DNA of 64,000 nucleotides from Clostridia bacterium (GTDB lineage: Bacteria > Bacillota > Clostridia > UMGS1883 > UMGS1540), in the NCBI GenBank assembly GCA_045656005.1, contig JAZOQG010000003.1, positions 2,226-66,225 of the forward strand, given 5' to 3'. This document shows, piece by piece, positions 2,279 through 63,253 of the stretch. The notes under the pieces are model-generated. The model was not told the DNA's origin. It saw nothing but the letters and a program-made list of their open reading frames with translations, and made no database searches. The translations under genes were made by a program, and so were the position numbers. How positions within the stretch are numbered: position 1 is the first letter of the stretch; the number at the start of each line of letters is the position of its first letter.

Positions 2279-3418
2279 CTAGTAAACTATAACTGTTGTG
2301 TTAAATGGCATGTCTCTTTCCATCCATCTTACATCATCATCATACATTCTTATACACCCGTGTGATGCAGGACGGCCAATGGTGGCATCAATGAGTGTTG
2401 AGCCATCGGGAGTATAAAGTCTTGAATGAAATGCAAGTCCTCTGTAAAGTTCAAAATATAAAATGGGGCGCACCTGATAATCGGGTTTTACCCATTTATC
2501 TTCTCTTGCAATGTATTTATAAACTCCCATGGGTGTAGGAGTTGTGTTTGCACCTGTAGCGCAAGAGAAAGATTTTAAAATCTTCCATTTAAAACGGCTT
2601 CCTACAAAAATATTAACTTTCTGCCTTCTGGGGTTAATCCAGATAAGGTAACCTGTCTGGCTGTCGTAACCTTTTGCATTTACAAAAATTTCTTTCTCGT
2701 CATTTGTATAGTCACCCGACTCTGTAAAGTTTGAGGAAGAAATGCGAACACTGCCATATGGCACCCATACATATGTTGCATCGGGAAGCTGAATGTAAGC
2801 AGAATATTCCTCGTTATGGTCATAATATATAACGGAAGTGCCTGCCGCAACTGTTCCCACTTTATTTGTAAGGGAGCTGTTTCCGTATGTAGCAGAGGAA
2901 GAAGTTACTGTGGCTCTTATCTGCATCGGCTGAACAAGTTCCAAAACCCTTTGTACCTCGGTGTCAATATAAGTGTCAGGGCTATAGGGAATTGTGATAA
3001 GCTCTTCTCTTATAATTCCGTCAACTGCAATATCCACACTTACTCCTGTGGAGCCTTTAGGAGAATAGTAGGGCAAAAGTCCCTGATAGCTTATGGTAAT
3101 CCCTTCGTAAAGGTCGATATTGCTATAGTATCCGTCAGAAAGAGGAACGCCGTCTTGCTTCCACTGAAGGGACGCTGTGGTGCCTTCGGGAACATTTGTA
3201 ATTTTCATTTCAACCATTACGGGCTGATTTTTCATAAGGCTTTCGCTATGAGATGTAAATTCCACTCCGAGGCTTTTAACAACGCTCGGCGGTGCTGCGG
3301 GGGGACGCGGGTATGCACCCAGTGCCCTTATAACCTCAAGCTCCCTTGCAGATGCAGGAGCATAAAGTGTACATATTGTGATTGTAATTGCAAGAATCAA
3401 AGTAATAATTTTTTTCAA
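2279..3418 (-). CDS. L,D-transpeptidase (YkuD-family) with signal peptide
   Basis: N-terminal signal peptide and a C-terminal catalytic motif GRPASHGCIRM (H-G-C of LD-TPase). Confidence 0.7.
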   Translation of the reverse strand: MKKIITLILAITITICTLYAPASARELEVIRALGAYPRPPAAPPSVVKSLGVEFTSHSESLMKNQPVMVEMKITNVPEGTTASLQWKQDGVPLSDGYYSNIDLYEGITISYQGLLPYYSPKGSTGVSVDIAVDGIIREELITIPYSPDTYIDTEVQRVLELVQPMQIRATVTSSSATYGNSSLTNKVGTVAAGTSVIYYDHNEEYSAYIQLPDATYVWVPYGSVRISSSNFTESGDYTNDEKEIFVNAKGYDSQTGYLIWINPRRQKVNIFVGSRFKWKILKSFSCATGANTTPTPMGVYKYIAREDKWVKPDYQVRPILYFELYRGLAFHSRLYTPDGSTLIDATIGRPASHGCIRMYDDDVRWMERDMPFNTTVIVY

Positions 3419-3490
3419 TATAATCCGCCTTTCGGAAATTTTTAAATCAATTAATTATACAGCCACAATCTCTGGTTGTCAACTGAAAAA

Positions 3491-5965: not shown

Positions 5966-7243
5966 TTACCTCGAAGTCTTTCTTCTGCGTCTGCGTCTCC
6001 TGCGTTGTCTTTTAAAAGAAGAATAAAGAAACCAAGTTACAAATGCAAACACTAAAAGAATATAAAATACTGCTGATTTAAAAAGTTTGTAAATGGGTTT
6101 AAAAATAAAGGCAAGCGGGATTTTTGAATAATCGGAAACAGAAAGCATATCACACTCTCCTACCTTTACTCCGTCATACCAGTATTCCATTCTGCCAAGT
6201 TTTTCACCAAGTTTTACGGGTGCCTTAACAGTTTGTTTTATGTACTCTTTCTTTTCGATTTTCTTGGGGTCTGCGCCTTTTGGTAAAATGAGATTGACAG
6301 TTTGAGACGCAGTTAAAATTGCCTCATCAGAAAAACTGCTTTTTATTGGGATAGAGCTTATTATGTCATCTTTTTTTGCGACAGTATGAGCATCATGGTT
6401 TTCAAAGCCATACTTTAAAAGTTTTTTACTGTCAACAAAAGACGAAGTTTCTGTGTCATCAGGTTTTGCACCTAAAACTGCGGATATATATTTTTCGTTT
6501 CCGCTTTCGGCACATGCAACAAGGCAATAGCCTGCATGGCTTGTATATCCCGTCTTTATTCCTGTTGCATACTGATAATAATATTTTGATTTTTTATCAA
6601 GAAGGTGATTTGTTGAGTGCAAAATGCGTTCCTCGTCCATTTTATTTGTGGGAGGAATGGTGTGTTTTGTCATTTTAACGGCTTCTGCAAAAAATGGAAG
6701 TTTCATTGCATACACTGCGATTTTTGAAAGGTCCTTTGCAGTTGTGTAATGGTTTTCGTCATGAAGTCCGTGGGGGTTTGTAAAATGGGTATTTTCACAT
6801 CCGAGTTCCTTTACTTTTTTGTTCATAAGCTCAACAAAACCTTCTGGGGTTTTGCTTATATATTCTGCGAGAACATTTGCCGCATCATTTGCAGAGGCAA
6901 TTATAAGAGAATAGAGCAAGTTCTCAAAGGACATTTTTTCCCCTTCGGAAAGATTTATTTTACTGCTGTCATATTCTATACTGTTGACAGCATAAAAACT
7001 AGCTGTGAGCATTTCGTTTTTTTCGAGTCCGCCACTTTCAATTGCTAAAATTGCGGTAACAATTTTTGTGGTTGAAGCAGGGTACATCTTTTTATCCGAA
7101 TTTTTTTCAAAAAGAGTAAGCCCTGATTCGCCGTCAACCAAAACTGCTGACGGGGATTTTAATGATATTTCAGCTGAACATACGCAGGTAAACGCAAGGA
7201 TAAATGCCAGAGTGAGTAAAATTATTTTTTTAAAGTAACTCAT
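5966..7243 (-). CDS. D-alanyl-D-alanine carboxypeptidase (serine-type, PBP5/DacF-like)
   Basis: Signal peptide, SxxK motif (ASTTK), C-terminal membrane anchor, then an unusual KRQRRRRRRRRK tail. Confidence 0.75.
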   Translation of the reverse strand: MSYFKKIILLTLAFILAFTCVCSAEISLKSPSAVLVDGESGLTLFEKNSDKKMYPASTTKIVTAILAIESGGLEKNEMLTASFYAVNSIEYDSSKINLSEGEKMSFENLLYSLIIASANDAANVLAEYISKTPEGFVELMNKKVKELGCENTHFTNPHGLHDENHYTTAKDLSKIAVYAMKLPFFAEAVKMTKHTIPPTNKMDEERILHSTNHLLDKKSKYYYQYATGIKTGYTSHAGYCLVACAESGNEKYISAVLGAKPDDTETSSFVDSKKLLKYGFENHDAHTVAKKDDIISSIPIKSSFSDEAILTASQTVNLILPKGADPKKIEKKEYIKQTVKAPVKLGEKLGRMEYWYDGVKVGECDMLSVSDYSKIPLAFIFKPIYKLFKSAVFYILLVFAFVTWFLYSSFKRQRRRRRRRRKTSR

Positions 7244-41418: not shown

Positions 41419-41447
41419 TTGACAAAAAGAGGAAATGCCTTTATAAT
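41419..41447 (+). promoter_or_regulatory. Sigma-A promoter TTGACA-17-TATAAT for rpsF-ssb-rpsR
   Basis: ttgaca 41419-41424, 17-nt spacer, tataat 41442-41447. Confidence 0.55.
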
Positions 41448-42629: not shown

Positions 42630-42704
42630 GTCTCGGTGGTCTAATGGATAAGATAGGGGATTCCGGTTCCTCTGATACGGGTTCGATTCCTGTCCGGGAC
42701 GCCA
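42630..42704 (+). tRNA. tRNA-Arg (anticodon CCG)
   Basis: Manual cloverleaf: acceptor GTCTCGG/CCGGGAC, D-arm, anticodon stem GGGGA/TCCTC with loop TTCCGGT (CCG), T-arm ACGGG-TTCGATT-CCTGT, 3' GCCA. Confidence 0.75.
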
Positions 42705-42705
42705 G

Positions 42706-42744
42706 AAAATAGCGTAGATTCCATCAAAATCTACGCTATTTTCA
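42706..42744. terminator. Bidirectional terminator after tRNA-Arg
   Basis: aaaatagcgtagat-tccatcaaa-atctacgctatttt (12-bp perfect stem). Confidence 0.6.
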
Positions 42745-42817
42745 ACGAAGTTGATATTTCACTAAAAATAATTTAAATCCATAAAAAAGCACCAAACATA
42801 CTTTTGTATATCTGGTG

Positions 42818-43018
42818 TCATTCTTTTTCAAATTTAATAATATCTTCAACGTTACAATCTAAAACATAGCAAAGAGCATCCAAGGTTTTGGTGCTGATTG
42901 CTTCACCTTTTTTAATTCTGTGAATTGTATTGGCAGAAAAACCTTGTTTAAATATCAGGTAATATTCAGTTAATCCTTTTTTAAATAGTGTGTTGTAGAA
43001 AGGTTTATAACTAATCAT
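42818..43018 (-). CDS. XRE-family (Cro/CI-type HTH) transcriptional regulator, about 66 aa
   Basis: MISYKPFYNTLFKKGLTEYYLIFKQGFSANTIHRIKKGEAISTKTLDALCYVLDCNVEDII is an HTH_XRE domain. The upstream Met codons are probably not used. Confidence 0.65.
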   Translation of the reverse strand: MISYKPFYNTLFKKGLTEYYLIFKQGFSANTIHRIKKGEAISTKTLDALCYVLDCNVEDIIKFEKE

Positions 43019-43054
43019 TTCCATCACCAACATAATTTTATCATACTTAAAGTA

Positions 43055-43083
43055 TTGACAATACTCAAAATATTGAGTATAAT
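43055..43083 (+). promoter_or_regulatory. Perfect consensus sigma-A promoter TTGACA-17-TATAAT with a 20-bp palindromic operator in the spacer
   Basis: ttgaca 43055-43060. Palindrome ATACTCAAAATATTGAGTAT at 43061-43080 (one mismatch). tataat 43078-43083. Confidence 0.6.
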
Positions 43084-43152
43084 TATTGTGCGGAATTGGT
43101 ATAAATAATACCTGTAATTTACATAACAACGTTCAGAATAAGCGGGGAAAAA

Positions 43153-43725
43153 ATGAGAACATTATTAGTATTGACAACAATTATAACAATATTATTTGTA
43201 GTTATTATATTAAAACTTTTGTTAAAAATTCGTATTCTTACTGAAAAAAATAAATATGTTGATGAAGCAAATATGTGGCACAAACTTGCGGTCACAGATG
43301 ATTTAACGGGAGTTTATAATAGGAATGCATACAATTTGTATATTGATAAAAATATGAAAAACATTCAAAAAAAATCAAGAGGGATTATTCTTTTTGATAT
43401 TGATGATTTTAAAATGATTAATGATACAAAAGGGCACTTGGCGGGAGATGAAGTGCTGAAGAATGTTGCAAAAAATCTTTTAAAGGTTTTTCCTGAACCC
43501 GAACATAGAGTCTTTCGGATAGGGGGAGATGAATTTTCAGTTTTAACTGAAGGTATTTCTGAAAATGAAATTATAAGACGTTTAATTCGCTTAAAAAAGT
43601 ATCTTGCTATTGATGGTAATATAGGCTTATCAAAAGGCTATTCAATTATTAAAAATACTCCTGAAGAAGCGTTTGAGTTTGCAGATGAGATGCTTTATGC
43701 AGATAAGCTATCTAAAAAACCTTGA
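43153..43725 (+). CDS. Minimal membrane-anchored diguanylate cyclase (single TM + GGDEF domain)
   Basis: N-terminal TM LLVLTTIITILFVVIILKLLL, then DDLTGVYNR and the active-site motif RIGGDEF. 190 aa. Confidence 0.75.
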   Translation: MRTLLVLTTIITILFVVIILKLLLKIRILTEKNKYVDEANMWHKLAVTDDLTGVYNRNAYNLYIDKNMKNIQKKSRGIILFDIDDFKMINDTKGHLAGDEVLKNVAKNLLKVFPEPEHRVFRIGGDEFSVLTEGISENEIIRRLIRLKKYLAIDGNIGLSKGYSIIKNTPEEAFEFADEMLYADKLSKKP

Positions 43726-43750
43726 CAAAACCTTCAAAAACTTTTATAAT
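43722..43750 (+). promoter_or_regulatory. Perfect consensus TTGACA-17-TATAAT promoter for glnA
   Basis: ttgaca 43722-43727 (overlapping the stop of the upstream gene), 17-nt spacer, tataat 43745-43750. Confidence 0.55.
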
Positions 43751-43779
43751 TTAACTATGATTTTTATTGGAGGTAGAAT

Positions 43780-45204
43780 ATGGGAAAAACAGTTAAGGAT
43801 ATTTTAAACTTAATCAGCAAAAACAACATTAAAATGGTGGATTTTAAAATGGTTGACATTAACGGTCAGTTCCGCCATGTAACAATTCCTGCAGGGAATT
43901 TTTCCGAAGAAGTTATGAAAAACGGAATAGGGTTTGACGCTTCAAACTATGGTTATGCTGTTGTTGAAAAAAGCGACATGGTATTTATTCCTGACCCTGA
44001 CACCGCTATTATTGACCCATTTTGCCAGATACCCACTTTATCAATGACAGGTAATGCAATGATTATTGATAAACCTGAAAACCGTCCTTTAGCACAGTAT
44101 CCAAGAAACATTGTGCTTTCAGCAGAGAAATATATGAGAGATATGGGCATTGCAGACAAAATGCTTATTCTCCCTGAATTTGAATTTTATCTTTTTGATG
44201 AAGTTTCGTGGGATGTAGCTCCAAACAGCATAGGCTTTAATGTTGATGCCGTTCAGGCGCACTGGAACAGCGGATGCGAGGGAAGCGGTCTTGTTGTTGA
44301 AAAGCAGAAAAACTACCACATTGCAAAGCCTTTTGACGTTTCTTATGAAGCAAGAAGCGAAATGTGCATGCTTATGGAAGAGATGGGCATAAAGCTTAAC
44401 TACCACCATCCTGAAGTTGGTGCGGCAGGTCAGTTTGAAATTGAGCCTCATCTTGGCGAAATGTCAAAAATGGCTGACGCTACAATGATGATTAAATATA
44501 TAATCCACAACACTGCAAGAAAATATGGTCTTTCCGCAACATTTATGCCAAAGCCTGTAATGGGTGAGGCGGGAAGCGGTATGCACGTTCATATGCAGCT
44601 TTTCAAAGACGGCAAGCCCGTGTTCTCCGATGACGCAGGATATGCAGGTTTAAGCCGAGATGCACACTACTTTATGGGCGGACTTTTAAAACACATTTCC
44701 TCCCTTTGTGCACTTACAAATCCAAGCACAAACTCCTTCAAACGTCTTGTTCCAGGATTTGAAGCACCTGTTACAGTTGGTTATGCAACTTCAAACCGCA
44801 GTGCGGTAATTCGTATTCCTGCTTATGCAAAGGATGAAAATTTAAGACGTTTCGAGCTCAGAAATCCTGATGCTACATGTAACCCATATTTCTGCTATGC
44901 TGCAATACTTATGGCAGGACTTGACGGTATCAAAAATAAAATAGACCCGCATGAAAACGGTTGGGGACCTTACGACTTTAACCTTTACAAGTTAAGCGAT
45001 GAGGAAAAGGCAAAGTTAAGCCACTTGCCCACTTCACTCGATGAAGCACTCACTGCCCTTGAAAATGACCATGATTATCTCACGGCGGGCGGTGTATTCC
45101 CAGAGGAAATGCTTACTAAATTTATTGAAACAAAGAGAGCAGAGTGCAGAGCTTTGTCGGCAATTCCGCATCCTGCTGAATTTGATAAGTATTATAATTT
45201 ATAA
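43780..45204 (+). CDS. glnA: Glutamine synthetase (type I-like, 474 aa)
   Basis: Gln-synt N and C domain motifs, including the ATP-binding region (KPVMGEAGSGMHVHMQL) and the NPY...GLDG region. Confidence 0.8.
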   Translation: MGKTVKDILNLISKNNIKMVDFKMVDINGQFRHVTIPAGNFSEEVMKNGIGFDASNYGYAVVEKSDMVFIPDPDTAIIDPFCQIPTLSMTGNAMIIDKPENRPLAQYPRNIVLSAEKYMRDMGIADKMLILPEFEFYLFDEVSWDVAPNSIGFNVDAVQAHWNSGCEGSGLVVEKQKNYHIAKPFDVSYEARSEMCMLMEEMGIKLNYHHPEVGAAGQFEIEPHLGEMSKMADATMMIKYIIHNTARKYGLSATFMPKPVMGEAGSGMHVHMQLFKDGKPVFSDDAGYAGLSRDAHYFMGGLLKHISSLCALTNPSTNSFKRLVPGFEAPVTVGYATSNRSAVIRIPAYAKDENLRRFELRNPDATCNPYFCYAAILMAGLDGIKNKIDPHENGWGPYDFNLYKLSDEEKAKLSHLPTSLDEALTALENDHDYLTAGGVFPEEMLTKFIETKRAECRALSAIPHPAEFDKYYNL

Positions 45205-45252: not shown

Positions 45253-45675
45253 TTACTGTTCATGAGAACATCCTGCAACACAAAGTGTTAAACATGCAGT
45301 TTCAGAAATTGTAAGTGAAAGGAAGAAAAGGAGAGCACCGGTTATAATTGCGCCTATTATGCTTGTAGCTGCAAATGTTATAGCAAGAAGAATTACGGAT
45401 GCTAAAGCTGTTCCGAGTATTCCCAAAAGAAGGGCGGGAAGAACATCGCAAATGCATCTTCGCACATCATAGCCTCTCACAAGAGCACTCGTAAGAAGCA
45501 CTACGGCAAGGTAAACCAAAGCAATACCCAACGTTACCCACAAAAATGCAGGGGTTACTGTTATTACAGCAGTTATTGTTAAAAATGCCGTAATGATACC
45601 TATAATAAGTGATGCTATAACTGCCAAAGCTGTGCAACCATTATTGCATCGGCAACTGCAATTAAAGTTTGACAT
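45253..45675 (-). CDS. Hypothetical Cys-rich polytopic membrane protein (140 aa)
   Basis: N-terminus MSNFNCSCRCNNGC, four hydrophobic helices, C-terminus ACLTLCVAGCSHEQ. Confidence 0.4.
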   Translation of the reverse strand: MSNFNCSCRCNNGCTALAVIASLIIGIITAFLTITAVITVTPAFLWVTLGIALVYLAVVLLTSALVRGYDVRRCICDVLPALLLGILGTALASVILLAITFAATSIIGAIITGALLFFLSLTISETACLTLCVAGCSHEQ

Positions 45676-62337: not shown

Positions 62338-62817
62338 TTAACAAAGACACAGATTAATAACTTGTTTATTTTGTTTTCTGGCATATTTTAAGGCGGATGC
62401 AGTACCACCAGAGCTTTCTTTGGAGTAAAAAATAACAAGGTCACTTCTGTCAATCATTTCGTGATTTCGGATGGTAATTGCGGATTTAAAATGAGAGGTG
62501 CGTGACGAGTGACATATTTCAATTGAGTCATAATATTCCTCGAAATATTCGGCGCTGTTTTTATATTCTGCAGTAGGATAGGGGAGAACGAGAGTGAGAC
62601 AAGTGTAAAAATCATCTTCTCTTTCTTTCAGTATGCGTTTTATAACGGAAGTGGCAAAGGTGTCAAATTCGCCGTTTCTGCCGATAAGAAGATTAATGTA
62701 TGTATGAGAAGAGAGAACAGAGCGGATAATTTCCTCTAGTTTTTCTTCGTATTTCGAGTGTTCACAAAAATCTCTGTGACCGAAAAAAGTTACTGTAAAT
62801 GTATCCATGTTTATCAC
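62338..62817 (-). CDS. Hypothetical Rossmann-like protein (possible SLOG/YpsA-DprA-LOG superfamily)
   Basis: FTVTFFGHRDF...LLIGRNGEFDTFA...SGGTASALKYARKQNKQVINL. The Gly-rich phosphate-binding-like motifs resemble SLOG domains. Low certainty. Confidence 0.3.
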   Translation of the reverse strand: MINMDTFTVTFFGHRDFCEHSKYEEKLEEIIRSVLSSHTYINLLIGRNGEFDTFATSVIKRILKEREDDFYTCLTLVLPYPTAEYKNSAEYFEEYYDSIEICHSSRTSHFKSAITIRNHEMIDRSDLVIFYSKESSGGTASALKYARKQNKQVINLCLC

Positions 62818-62944
62818 CTTCGTTTAAAATAGATATTTAACTAATTATATCTAAATAAACTGGACATGTCAATTGAAATTAATGAATAAACCAAACTAAA
62901 ACAAGGGCAACATATAGTACAATTAGACACAGAGGAGTGGTGAC

Positions 62945-63253
62945 ATGGAGAAACATGAATTTAGTTTAAGACTTTCAAAATTGCGTTTAAACAAAGGCGT
63001 TTCAGCAAGAGATATGAGTTTATCCATAGGTCAAAGTCCTGGTTATATAAATAACATTGAAACAGAAGTTAATTTTCCTTCTATGACAGTTTTCTTTTAT
63101 ATTTGTGAATACCTTGGAGTTACACCTGCTCAGTTTTTTGATGAGGGAGTATCAAACCCTACAAGAATTAGTGAAATTACTGAAAAAATTAAAAAACTTG
63201 ATGATAAACAACTTGATATTATTTTAGCACTTGTAAATGATATGATAAAATAG
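62945..63253 (+). CDS. XRE-family HTH transcriptional regulator (102 aa)
   Basis: LRLSKLRLNKGVSARDMSLSIGQSPGYINNIE is an HTH_XRE domain. Confidence 0.65.
   Translation: MEKHEFSLRLSKLRLNKGVSARDMSLSIGQSPGYINNIETEVNFPSMTVFFYICEYLGVTPAQFFDEGVSNPTRISEITEKIKKLDDKQLDIILALVNDMIK

Follow-up and report, generated by a model that had tools for sequence, protein, structure and literature searches.

We analysed a stretch of 64,000 nucleotides (hereafter, the window) from a Clostridia bacterium (GenBank assembly GCA_045656005.1, contig JAZOQG010000003.1, positions 2,226 to 66,225 of the forward strand). The locus of interest encodes a 66-amino acid (aa) Cro/CI-type helix-turn-helix (HTH) protein of the XRE class and, divergently from it, a 190-aa diguanylate cyclase, a GGDEF-domain protein predicted to make cyclic di-GMP (c-di-GMP). 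A tRNA-Arg gene and its terminator lie upstream of this module, and glnA follows it. These elements had been proposed in an initial annotation that was made from the sequence alone, and all were recovered here: the tRNA gene and terminator by ARAGORN, Rfam and a repeat search, the HTH gene on the minus strand, the cyclase with its transmembrane (TM) helix and intact GGDEF motif, and the textbook TTGACA-17-TATAAT promoter ahead of it. A second perfect promoter, that of glnA, overlaps the cyclase stop codon as had been described. No terminator was found between the cyclase gene and glnA. The GC content across 42800-43800 is 0.25-0.31, compared with 0.38 for the whole window.

Table 1 Features of the XRE-cyclase locus and its immediate surroundings (window coordinates)
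Feature	Position	Strand	Evidence and remarks
tRNA-Arg (anticodon CCG)	42630..42704	+	ARAGORN; Rfam tRNA 53 bits; convergent with XRE gene
tRNA terminator	42705..42748	+	Perfect 16-bp stem (42705-20 / 42728-43), hairpin 42705-42743, then TTTTC; repeat search
27-nt piece TCAACGAAGTTGATATTTCACTAAAA	42742..42768	.	Matches the end of the L019 Gut-1-like element exactly
XRE-gene intrinsic terminator	42790..42817	-	Begins directly after the XRE stop codon
XRE / Cro-CI type HTH protein, 66 aa (MISYKPFY...)	42818..43018	-	Pfam HTH_26 E=9e-12; predicted repressor
XRE ribosome-binding site GGTGAT	43023..43028	-	ATCACC unchanged across 21 loci
Predicted XRE promoter TTGAGT (43068-63)-17 nt-TATGAT (43045-40), 9/12	43040..43068	-	Columns invariant in 21 loci
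Weak dyad O_L ATACTTAA-AGTA-TTGACAAT	43043..43062	.	Mismatch search; alignment; contains cargo -35
Cargo promoter TTGACA (43055-60)-17 nt-TATAAT (43078-83), 12/12	43055..43083	+	Present in every relative
Strong dyad O_R ATACTCAA-AATA-TTGAGTAT, predicted main operator	43061..43080	.	Arms 43061-68 and 43073-80
Predicted cyclase 5' untranslated region (UTR), ~63 nt, ribosome-binding site GGGG at 43144-47	43090..43152	+	No Rfam match
TM-stalk-GGDEF diguanylate cyclase, 190 aa	43153..43725	+	Pfam GGDEF E=2.6e-28; RIGGDEF at 43516-43536
Second perfect promoter (glnA), TTGACA-17-TATAAT, 12/12	43722..43750	+	Overlaps cyclase TGA stop (43723-43725)
glnA, type I glutamine synthetase	43780..45204	+	TIGR00653 520 bits; neighbour, outside the module

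The XRE and cyclase genes are a conserved pair

A protein search identified at least 228 clusters (90% identity) of TM-GGDEF proteins of about 190-200 aa, all from uncultured gut Clostridia. In a scan of species-representative genomes, about 45 loci of the cyclase family were found at 41-76% identity; named carrier taxa include Candidatus Aphodoplasma, Ructibacterium, Congzhengia, Acutalibacteraceae and Oscillospiraceae. Wherever the cyclase was at least 62% identical and upstream DNA was present, a divergent XRE gene lay next to it, in 21 of 21 species and also at L165 and L166 (numbers with the prefix L denote loci of relatives). Across those species the XRE protein is 86-95% identical and the cyclase 65-76%. 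When flanking open reading frames (ORFs) were clustered, the XRE and cyclase genes were the sole genes in common, every other neighbour being present in six loci at most. This constant pairing amid varied flanks bears out the proposal that the small HTH protein and the cyclase are a real, conserved regulator-target pair.

Compared with the window copy, the XRE genes have a nonsynonymous divergence (dN) of 0.04-0.10 and a proportion of synonymous differences (pS) of 0.64-0.89, which is saturated, and the cyclase genes a dN of about 0.17 and a pS of about 0.5 (one L023 dN value was left out, as its reading-frame offset was wrong). These values indicate that both genes are old and under purifying selection, the XRE gene exceptionally so. 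Since the synonymous sites are saturated, a recent horizontal transfer of the pair is excluded.

Conservation extends into the DNA between the genes. In the intergenic alignment of the 21 species, about 70 bp from the XRE ATG to the TATAAT of the cyclase promoter are almost invariant, and conservation drops right after the -10. Near-invariant columns comprise the XRE start and ribosome-binding site (RBS), TATGAT, ATACTYAA-AGTA-TTGACAAT, the -35, the strong dyad and TATAAT. One relative, L046, carries a cyclase that is split into two frames (6001-6261 and 6258-6518, spanning 6001-6518) beside an intact XRE gene and promoter; the cause is either a frameshift, which would make the gene a pseudogene, or an error in the assembly.

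The XRE protein matches Pfam HTH_26 with 45.5 bits (cut-off 22) and has an HTH_3/HTH_26-type domain. Its closest solved structure is 3tyr (E=0.006) and its closest NCBIfam match is NF000090 (E=1e-4). The ATG at 43018 is taken as the real start, as an upstream in-frame ATG is missing in relatives and the GGTGAT RBS is invariant. A hairpin follows the XRE stop codon in almost all relatives. VanU, from the vanG cluster, and YozG-like HTH_26 regulators fall into the Pfam family of the XRE protein and have a comparable size, but the similarity is distant (22 against the 150-bit family cut-off) and the genomic contexts are unrelated.

Two mirror-image dyads overlap a bidirectional promoter

The spacer of the cyclase promoter had been described as almost entirely a 20-bp palindrome. 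A dyad is indeed present there, but it is not a perfect 20-mer: two perfect 8-bp arms surround a non-symmetric AATA centre. This strong dyad, O_R, occupies the spacer of the cargo promoter (we use cargo for the gene behind the consensus promoter, here the cyclase) and the first 3 nt of its -10. While O_R agrees with the operator of the initial annotation, a second, weaker dyad, O_L, had been missed. A mismatch search of the window found no further copies beyond these two.

The predicted XRE promoter has its -35 inside the left arm of O_R and its spacer and -10 inside O_L. With each transcription start site (TSS) set 7 nt after the -10, the centre of O_R is at -19.5 from the predicted cargo TSS and at -37.5 from the XRE TSS, and that of O_L is at -19.5 from the predicted XRE TSS and at -37.5 from the cargo TSS. 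As placed by these predicted start sites, the two dyads are mirror images relative to the two promoters. Only one arm position of O_R varies freely among the relatives (C/T on the left, G/A on the right), and in L019 both arms change. The alignment indicates strong selection on the dyad that lies in the promoter spacer. The exact promoter-plus-dyad pattern has one occurrence per locus in the 27 relatives' loci that were fetched. A candidate third operator half-site, AGTATTGACAA (43167-77, at the start of the cyclase ORF), was dropped on account of its inconsistent conservation across species.

Five perfect TTGACA-17-TATAAT sites are present in the window (3454-3482(-), 41419-41447(+), 43055, 43722 and 62844(-)), against 0.02 expected from shuffles. 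One of the five heads the rpsF-ssb-rpsR operon, and another lies just upstream of a YkuD L,D-transpeptidase gene (2279-3418, -), which it presumably drives. With its score of 12/12, like that of the rpsF-operon promoter, the cyclase promoter falls into the strongest promoter class of the organism. Neither the cyclase 5' UTR nor the rest of the window gave an Rfam match to a riboswitch or leader RNA.

XRE type and dyad co-vary

Distant cyclase orthologues (41-54% identity) carry other small divergent XRE proteins, of the HTH_3/HTH_19 type. At seven such loci the promoter region reads ...ATAGACAGAAACTTTCTA-TTGACW-TT[TAGACG-N5-CGTCTA]TAAT, and at L033 it reads ATGACATTATGTCAT...TTGACG-TT[TATGACG-ATA-CGTCATA]TAAT (the dyads are bracketed). 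Both alternative XRE types also have a second dyad upstream. Symmetric changes in the two arms were found in L040 (TAGAT...ATCTA) and in L019 (ATACTTAA..TTAAGTAT). Three XRE lineages, each with its own dyad at an identical position in a near-consensus promoter, therefore precede the same cyclase family, a pattern of operator co-evolution. The presence of private dyads in three lineages suggests that the dyad is bound by the HTH protein and that selection acts on tight gating. Among the computational evidence this co-variation is the best for cognate binding, and it argues for it strongly. Together with the conservation described above, it lends good support to the view, put forward in the initial annotation, that the small HTH protein would gate the consensus promoter via the dyad.

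The cyclase is predicted to be active whenever it is made

The cyclase matches Pfam GGDEF (PF00990) with 99 bits (cut-off 23.8) and TIGR00254 with 90.8 bits (cut-off 37.4). In 33 aligned members of the family, D82, D84, K87, N90, D91, H95, G98, D99, R122, G124, G125, D126, F128 and D184/K185 are invariant, and E127 is conserved in at least 90%, with one member having GGDKF. The GGDEF motif and the residues that bind metal and GTP are all in place, and an alignment to 3ign agrees. Solved structures matched in a sequence search of the PDB were all canonical cyclases. By these residues the cyclase looks catalytically competent. D99 occupies the position that is Ser in Hypr-GGDEFs, which points to GTP specificity. 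An RxxD inhibitory site (I-site) is missing: EPEH precedes RIGGDEF, and the family consensus of the 33 members is also without RxxD. In the absence of an I-site, no product inhibition is expected. Protein look-ups returned no exact match to the window cyclase or to P0001.

In the AlphaFold2 (AF2) model (pLDDT 90.8), a single helix of residues 2-47 enters the GGDEF fold. This helix is formed by the TM segment (approximately residues 3-27) and a highly conserved stalk, KYVDEANMWHKLAVTDDLTG, and the GGDEF domain spans residues 46-188. The best Foldseek matches were PleD, the coiled-coil-GGDEF protein DgcB (6ttr) and a GCN4-zipper-WspR fusion (3i5c), with E~1e-13 and TM-scores of 0.7-0.77. In cyclases of the PleD/DgcB/WspR type, a parallel helical dimer brings two GGDEF domains into position for catalysis. 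The unbroken TM-stalk helix of the model leads us to infer that the cyclase would homodimerise. It shares with these stalk or coiled-coil GGDEF proteins the fold, the catalytic residues and an N-terminal helix that runs straight into the domain. Unlike them, it has no receiver or sensor, no RxxD I-site, and one TM helix with almost nothing extracytoplasmic; its 190 aa are near the minimum size for a membrane cyclase. With no sensor, receiver or I-site, its control is, as far as evident, only transcriptional, and the enzyme should be active whenever it is made. An always-active cyclase would account for a maximal promoter that is combined with an operator in its core.

A probable transcriptional gate on the cyclase

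We consider it likely that the locus works as a self-contained gate that controls, at the level of transcription, a constitutively active diguanylate cyclase. The XRE protein, presumably as a dimer, would bind the O_R dyad (ATACTCAA-N4-TTGAGTAT) and block RNA polymerase at the consensus promoter, so that the cyclase gene would be silent. Being read from the weaker back-to-back promoter that shares the dyads, the XRE gene product would also control its own level. When XRE occupancy falls, the cargo promoter would fire, and the cyclase, dimerised via its TM-plus-stalk helix, would produce c-di-GMP without product inhibition for putative downstream targets.

The layout resembles that of the OR switches of lambda, 434 and P22. 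Shared features are an HTH protein of the Cro/CI class, divergent overlapping promoters and two unequal adjacent dyads, each of which falls within the core of one promoter and around position -37 relative to the opposing one; the logic of autoregulation coupled to repression of a strong promoter is predicted to be shared as well. Unlike the OR switches, the locus has no phage context, no Cro behind the strong promoter and two dyads instead of three, and the XRE protein, at only 66 aa, has no C-terminal domain for oligomerisation or RecA cleavage. Controller (C) proteins of restriction-modification (R-M) systems are likewise XRE-type HTH proteins (about 70-100 aa) with strong and weak dyads at their own promoter, so that the output of a gene that may be harmful is delayed or switch-like. 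Whereas a C protein shares its transcript with the endonuclease and acts as its activator, the genes studied here are divergent and R-M genes are absent. As the target promoter is already at consensus, repression rather than activation is expected.

Several observations weigh against a gate of this kind. Members of the cyclase family at L030, L031/32, L037, L044 and L049 are without any adjacent XRE gene. The 66-aa HTH protein has neither a ligand domain nor a sensor domain. O_R covers the -35 of the XRE promoter, so that repression and lambda-CI-like activation of the XRE gene by its own product both fit the sequence. No c-di-GMP effector was identified in the 64 kb of genome covered. Finally, in other genomes near-identical XRE proteins with the same operator drive unrelated cargo, which implies that the regulator is not specific to the cyclase and might be part of a wider circuit.

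To our knowledge, c-di-GMP signalling in the abundant uncultured gut Clostridia (Oscillospiraceae and Christensenellales relatives) is essentially unexplored, and literature searches returned nothing relevant on XRE-controlled diguanylate cyclases or on GGDEF defence systems. That control has been rebuilt with three repressor/operator pairs on one promoter plan points to tight, probably all-or-none gating maintained by selection. Resolved to single base pairs and about 45 bp long, the cis-element allows a direct test of the gate model in a heterologous host, and the cassette could serve as a compact and very tight regulatory part for Clostridia.

The same promoter and XRE protein face other cargo

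The XRE protein search gave 1455 matches, compared with 228 for the cyclase, and the best 120 of them were all at least 85% identical. XRE proteins that face other cargo are 85-91% identical to that of the window and have the same recognition helix and the same TTGACA-[ATACTYAA-N4-TTGAGTA]TAAT promoter. Their cargo is an LRR_5 secreted protein with a signal peptide (L167), a 145-aa Zn-ribbon protein (L168), a 65-aa protein (L170) or, in a 59%-GC organism, a 161-aa TM/Zn-ribbon protein (L173-176); at L169 there is no clear ORF. The cultured Subdoligranulum variabile (58% GC) has a 61%-identical XRE protein whose AT-rich promoter/operator is kept and faces a 120-aa signal-peptide protein. These loci, together with the three XRE types, indicate that cargo was exchanged behind a constant gate and that the cyclase changed gates. 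The components and logic of the locus are of a known kind; new are the cyclase family, the repeated plan of a promoter-embedded operator, and the exchangeable-cargo gate at tRNA/rRNA flanks.

A tRNA gene is located within 650 bp of the XRE stop codon in 12 of 26 evaluable distinct cassettes and in 2 of 80 glnA control loci (Fisher p=3e-7, with shared ancestry ignored). The adjacency holds whatever the cargo and includes at least eight junction types, among them Arg-CCG (the window), Arg-ACG (two, in differing orientations), 23S-5S-tRNA-Asn (four), Met (two), Lys-CTT, a Val-Asp-Phe-Gly-Cys cluster and Val-CAC. At nearly all junctions the tRNA gene points the same way as the cargo and towards the XRE gene, which means that transcripts running past the tRNA would cover the repressor gene in antisense and the cargo in sense. 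The cassette directly follows the end of a 23S-5S-tRNA-Asn rRNA operon in L015 (144-260), L019 (23-139) and L027 (1-371). Adjacency to stable RNA genes explains why many contigs of metagenome-assembled genomes end at most a few hundred bases away from the XRE gene. Part of the adjacency signal may come from a single ancestral site, at which a large tRNA array ends; adjacency beyond that site needs a hot-spot or functional explanation.

The spacer between the tRNA and XRE genes collects small non-coding elements, including copies of the Gut-1 RNA motif (RF01706). Such copies were found in L019 (284-357(+) and 376-458(-)), L007 (404-475) and L165 (473-540); the two in L019 (65 and 45.8 bits) are inverted relative to each other and look more like a repeat element than like a small RNA gene. 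The Gut-1-like element of L019 lies between tRNA-Asn and the XRE gene, and the 27-nt piece of the window that is identical to its end is probably a remnant of a Gut-1 element. A different conserved non-coding element of about 85 nt, CAATGGTTTGAGGGCTTTTTGCAAAAA.CAGTTTTGAAACAAAAGG.TAGATGCCAAGCGGTTTTGAACCAGACTTGAAC on the cargo-sense strand, is located between the tRNA and XRE terminators, approximately 40-130 nt 3' of the XRE stop codon, in L006, L012, L013, L015, L017, L018, L019, L023 and L025, and partially in L067. It has no Rfam match and does not occur in the window.

Alternative explanations

The initial annotation had suggested that the module is an insertion at the 3' end of tRNA-Arg and that it resembles phage-defence-like signalling cassettes. 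In order to call it an insertion one would look for an empty site, and none was found: the sole close relative, L165, is occupied. L165 is 95% identical at the nucleotide level from the XRE terminator through glnA and keeps the order rpsR-tRNA-Arg-XRE-GGDEF-glnA. The 80 glnA relatives from a metagenome scan (78-84% identity) share no synteny, as none has rpsR, tRNA-Arg, XRE, GGDEF or the 140-aa neighbour described below; with the pair upstream in 0 of these 80, glnA is a chance neighbour. The tRNA flank itself does differ in L165, where an unrelated 240-bp spacer (417-656), rich in CGATATA-type repeats that are also present in L025, stands in place of window 42705-42775. To the left of this spacer (rpsR-tRNA) identity is 86.5%, against 95% to the right, a difference which suggests, at the level of sequence identity, that a recombined segment has its edge beside the tRNA. 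An accessory island or anti-phage signalling cassette, with the cyclase as defence sensor or signal generator, would fit this replaced spacer as well as the adjoining tRNA, the AT-richness of the module and the varied surroundings of the pair. Yet around the cassette only short AT-rich chance matches were found as att-like direct repeats, with no duplication of the tRNA 3' end, and no ORF at 41-46 kb encodes an integrase. PADLOC gave no match for the XRE protein and only TM-region noise for the cyclase (ZorB E=0.008; 0.096), neither the cyclase family (by profile) nor the XRE protein was found in viral contigs, and flanking-ORF clustering revealed no effector gene conserved beside the pair. 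Apart from a match in one unannotated Subdoligranulum replicon, tblastn searches of phage and plasmid records returned only YozG-like proteins of distant relationship (<45%). Panoptes/mCpol and other nucleotide-signal defence systems share with the cyclase a small palm-fold nucleotide cyclase and membrane association, but the enzyme here is a canonical PF00990 GGDEF and not a minimal Cas10-palm of the mCpol type. With long-term purifying selection across more than 20 species added to the retained synteny of L165, neither the insertion nor the defence proposal is supported, and we hold an island or defence cassette to be very improbable.

The tight linkage of the two genes, the maximal-strength promoter in front of an I-site-less enzyme and the very strong selection on the XRE protein could also be expected of a toxin-antitoxin-like or addiction module, in which uncontrolled c-di-GMP synthesis would arrest growth and the XRE protein would be a labile antidote acting by repression. 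The genes are divergent, with separate promoters and terminators, unlike the co-transcribed type II toxin-antitoxin systems; some cargo behind the same XRE protein, such as the LRR surface protein, does not look toxic; and a protease or partner protein is not evident. We give this explanation hardly any weight. A broader idea deserves somewhat more, namely that the ultra-conserved XRE gene and its mirror-symmetric two-dyad promoter form a portable 'expression gate' of gut Clostridia: a transferable unit with exchangeable cargo, repeatedly coupled to different membrane or secreted proteins, of which the cyclase is the commonest here, and preferentially placed at the distal end of tRNA/rRNA operons. 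It would be anchored at the tRNA/rRNA genes either by a rearrangement or insertion hot spot or by stable-RNA read-through antisense to XRE and sense to cargo. The varied cargo behind near-identical XRE proteins (L167-L176), the S. variabile locus, the excess of XRE over cyclase matches and the proximity of tRNA genes all favour such a unit. On the other hand, no recombinase, att repeat or terminal repeat was found, the saturated synonymous sites reveal no recent transfer, and the cassette is missing from viral contigs, as are close copies from phage and plasmid records. The tRNA adjacency may partly reflect the single ancestral site, at the end of a Val-Asp-Phe-Gly-Cys(-Glu-Met) array (L012, L018, L023, L037 and L169), a shared ancestry that the Fisher p-value ignores, and the strong terminator of the window tRNA speaks against substantial read-through. 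On balance we regard a portable gate as rather unlikely, and prefer the transcriptional gate on the cyclase. If true, the portable gate would be either a small unit, not described before, that is mobile or prone to recombination, or a device in which antisense read-through couples stable-RNA (growth-rate) transcription to a bistable switch; exchangeable cargo and stable-RNA attraction would be of broader interest for genome organisation if a real mechanism lies behind them.

Neighbouring genes and similar small units

Downstream of glnA, a 140-aa Cys-rich multi-TM protein without a Pfam match is encoded at 45253-45675 (-). Homologues of this protein occur near the cyclase in L010 and L020 (54-59% identity), and it is the sole loosely recurring neighbour of the window locus.

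The window contains a second, similar unit at 62338-63253. There, a gene for a 102-aa HTH_3/HTH_19 protein (62945-63253, +) is divergent from a perfect TTGACA-17-TATAAT promoter (62872..62844, -), in whose spacer no obvious dyad was seen and which drives a gene for a 159-aa protein without a Pfam match (62817..62338, -). In L002, an HTH_19 protein is encoded convergently with the cyclase and divergently from a 162-aa protein. Just downstream of the cyclase, other small XRE proteins (about 80 aa, 31-37% identical to that of the window) are divergent from a Zn-ribbon/TM protein of about 90 aa in L008 (6683-7255), L009 (1687-2738), L010 (1213-1748) and L014 (1145-1387). Pairs of a mini-XRE and a small membrane protein seem to be common in this clade.

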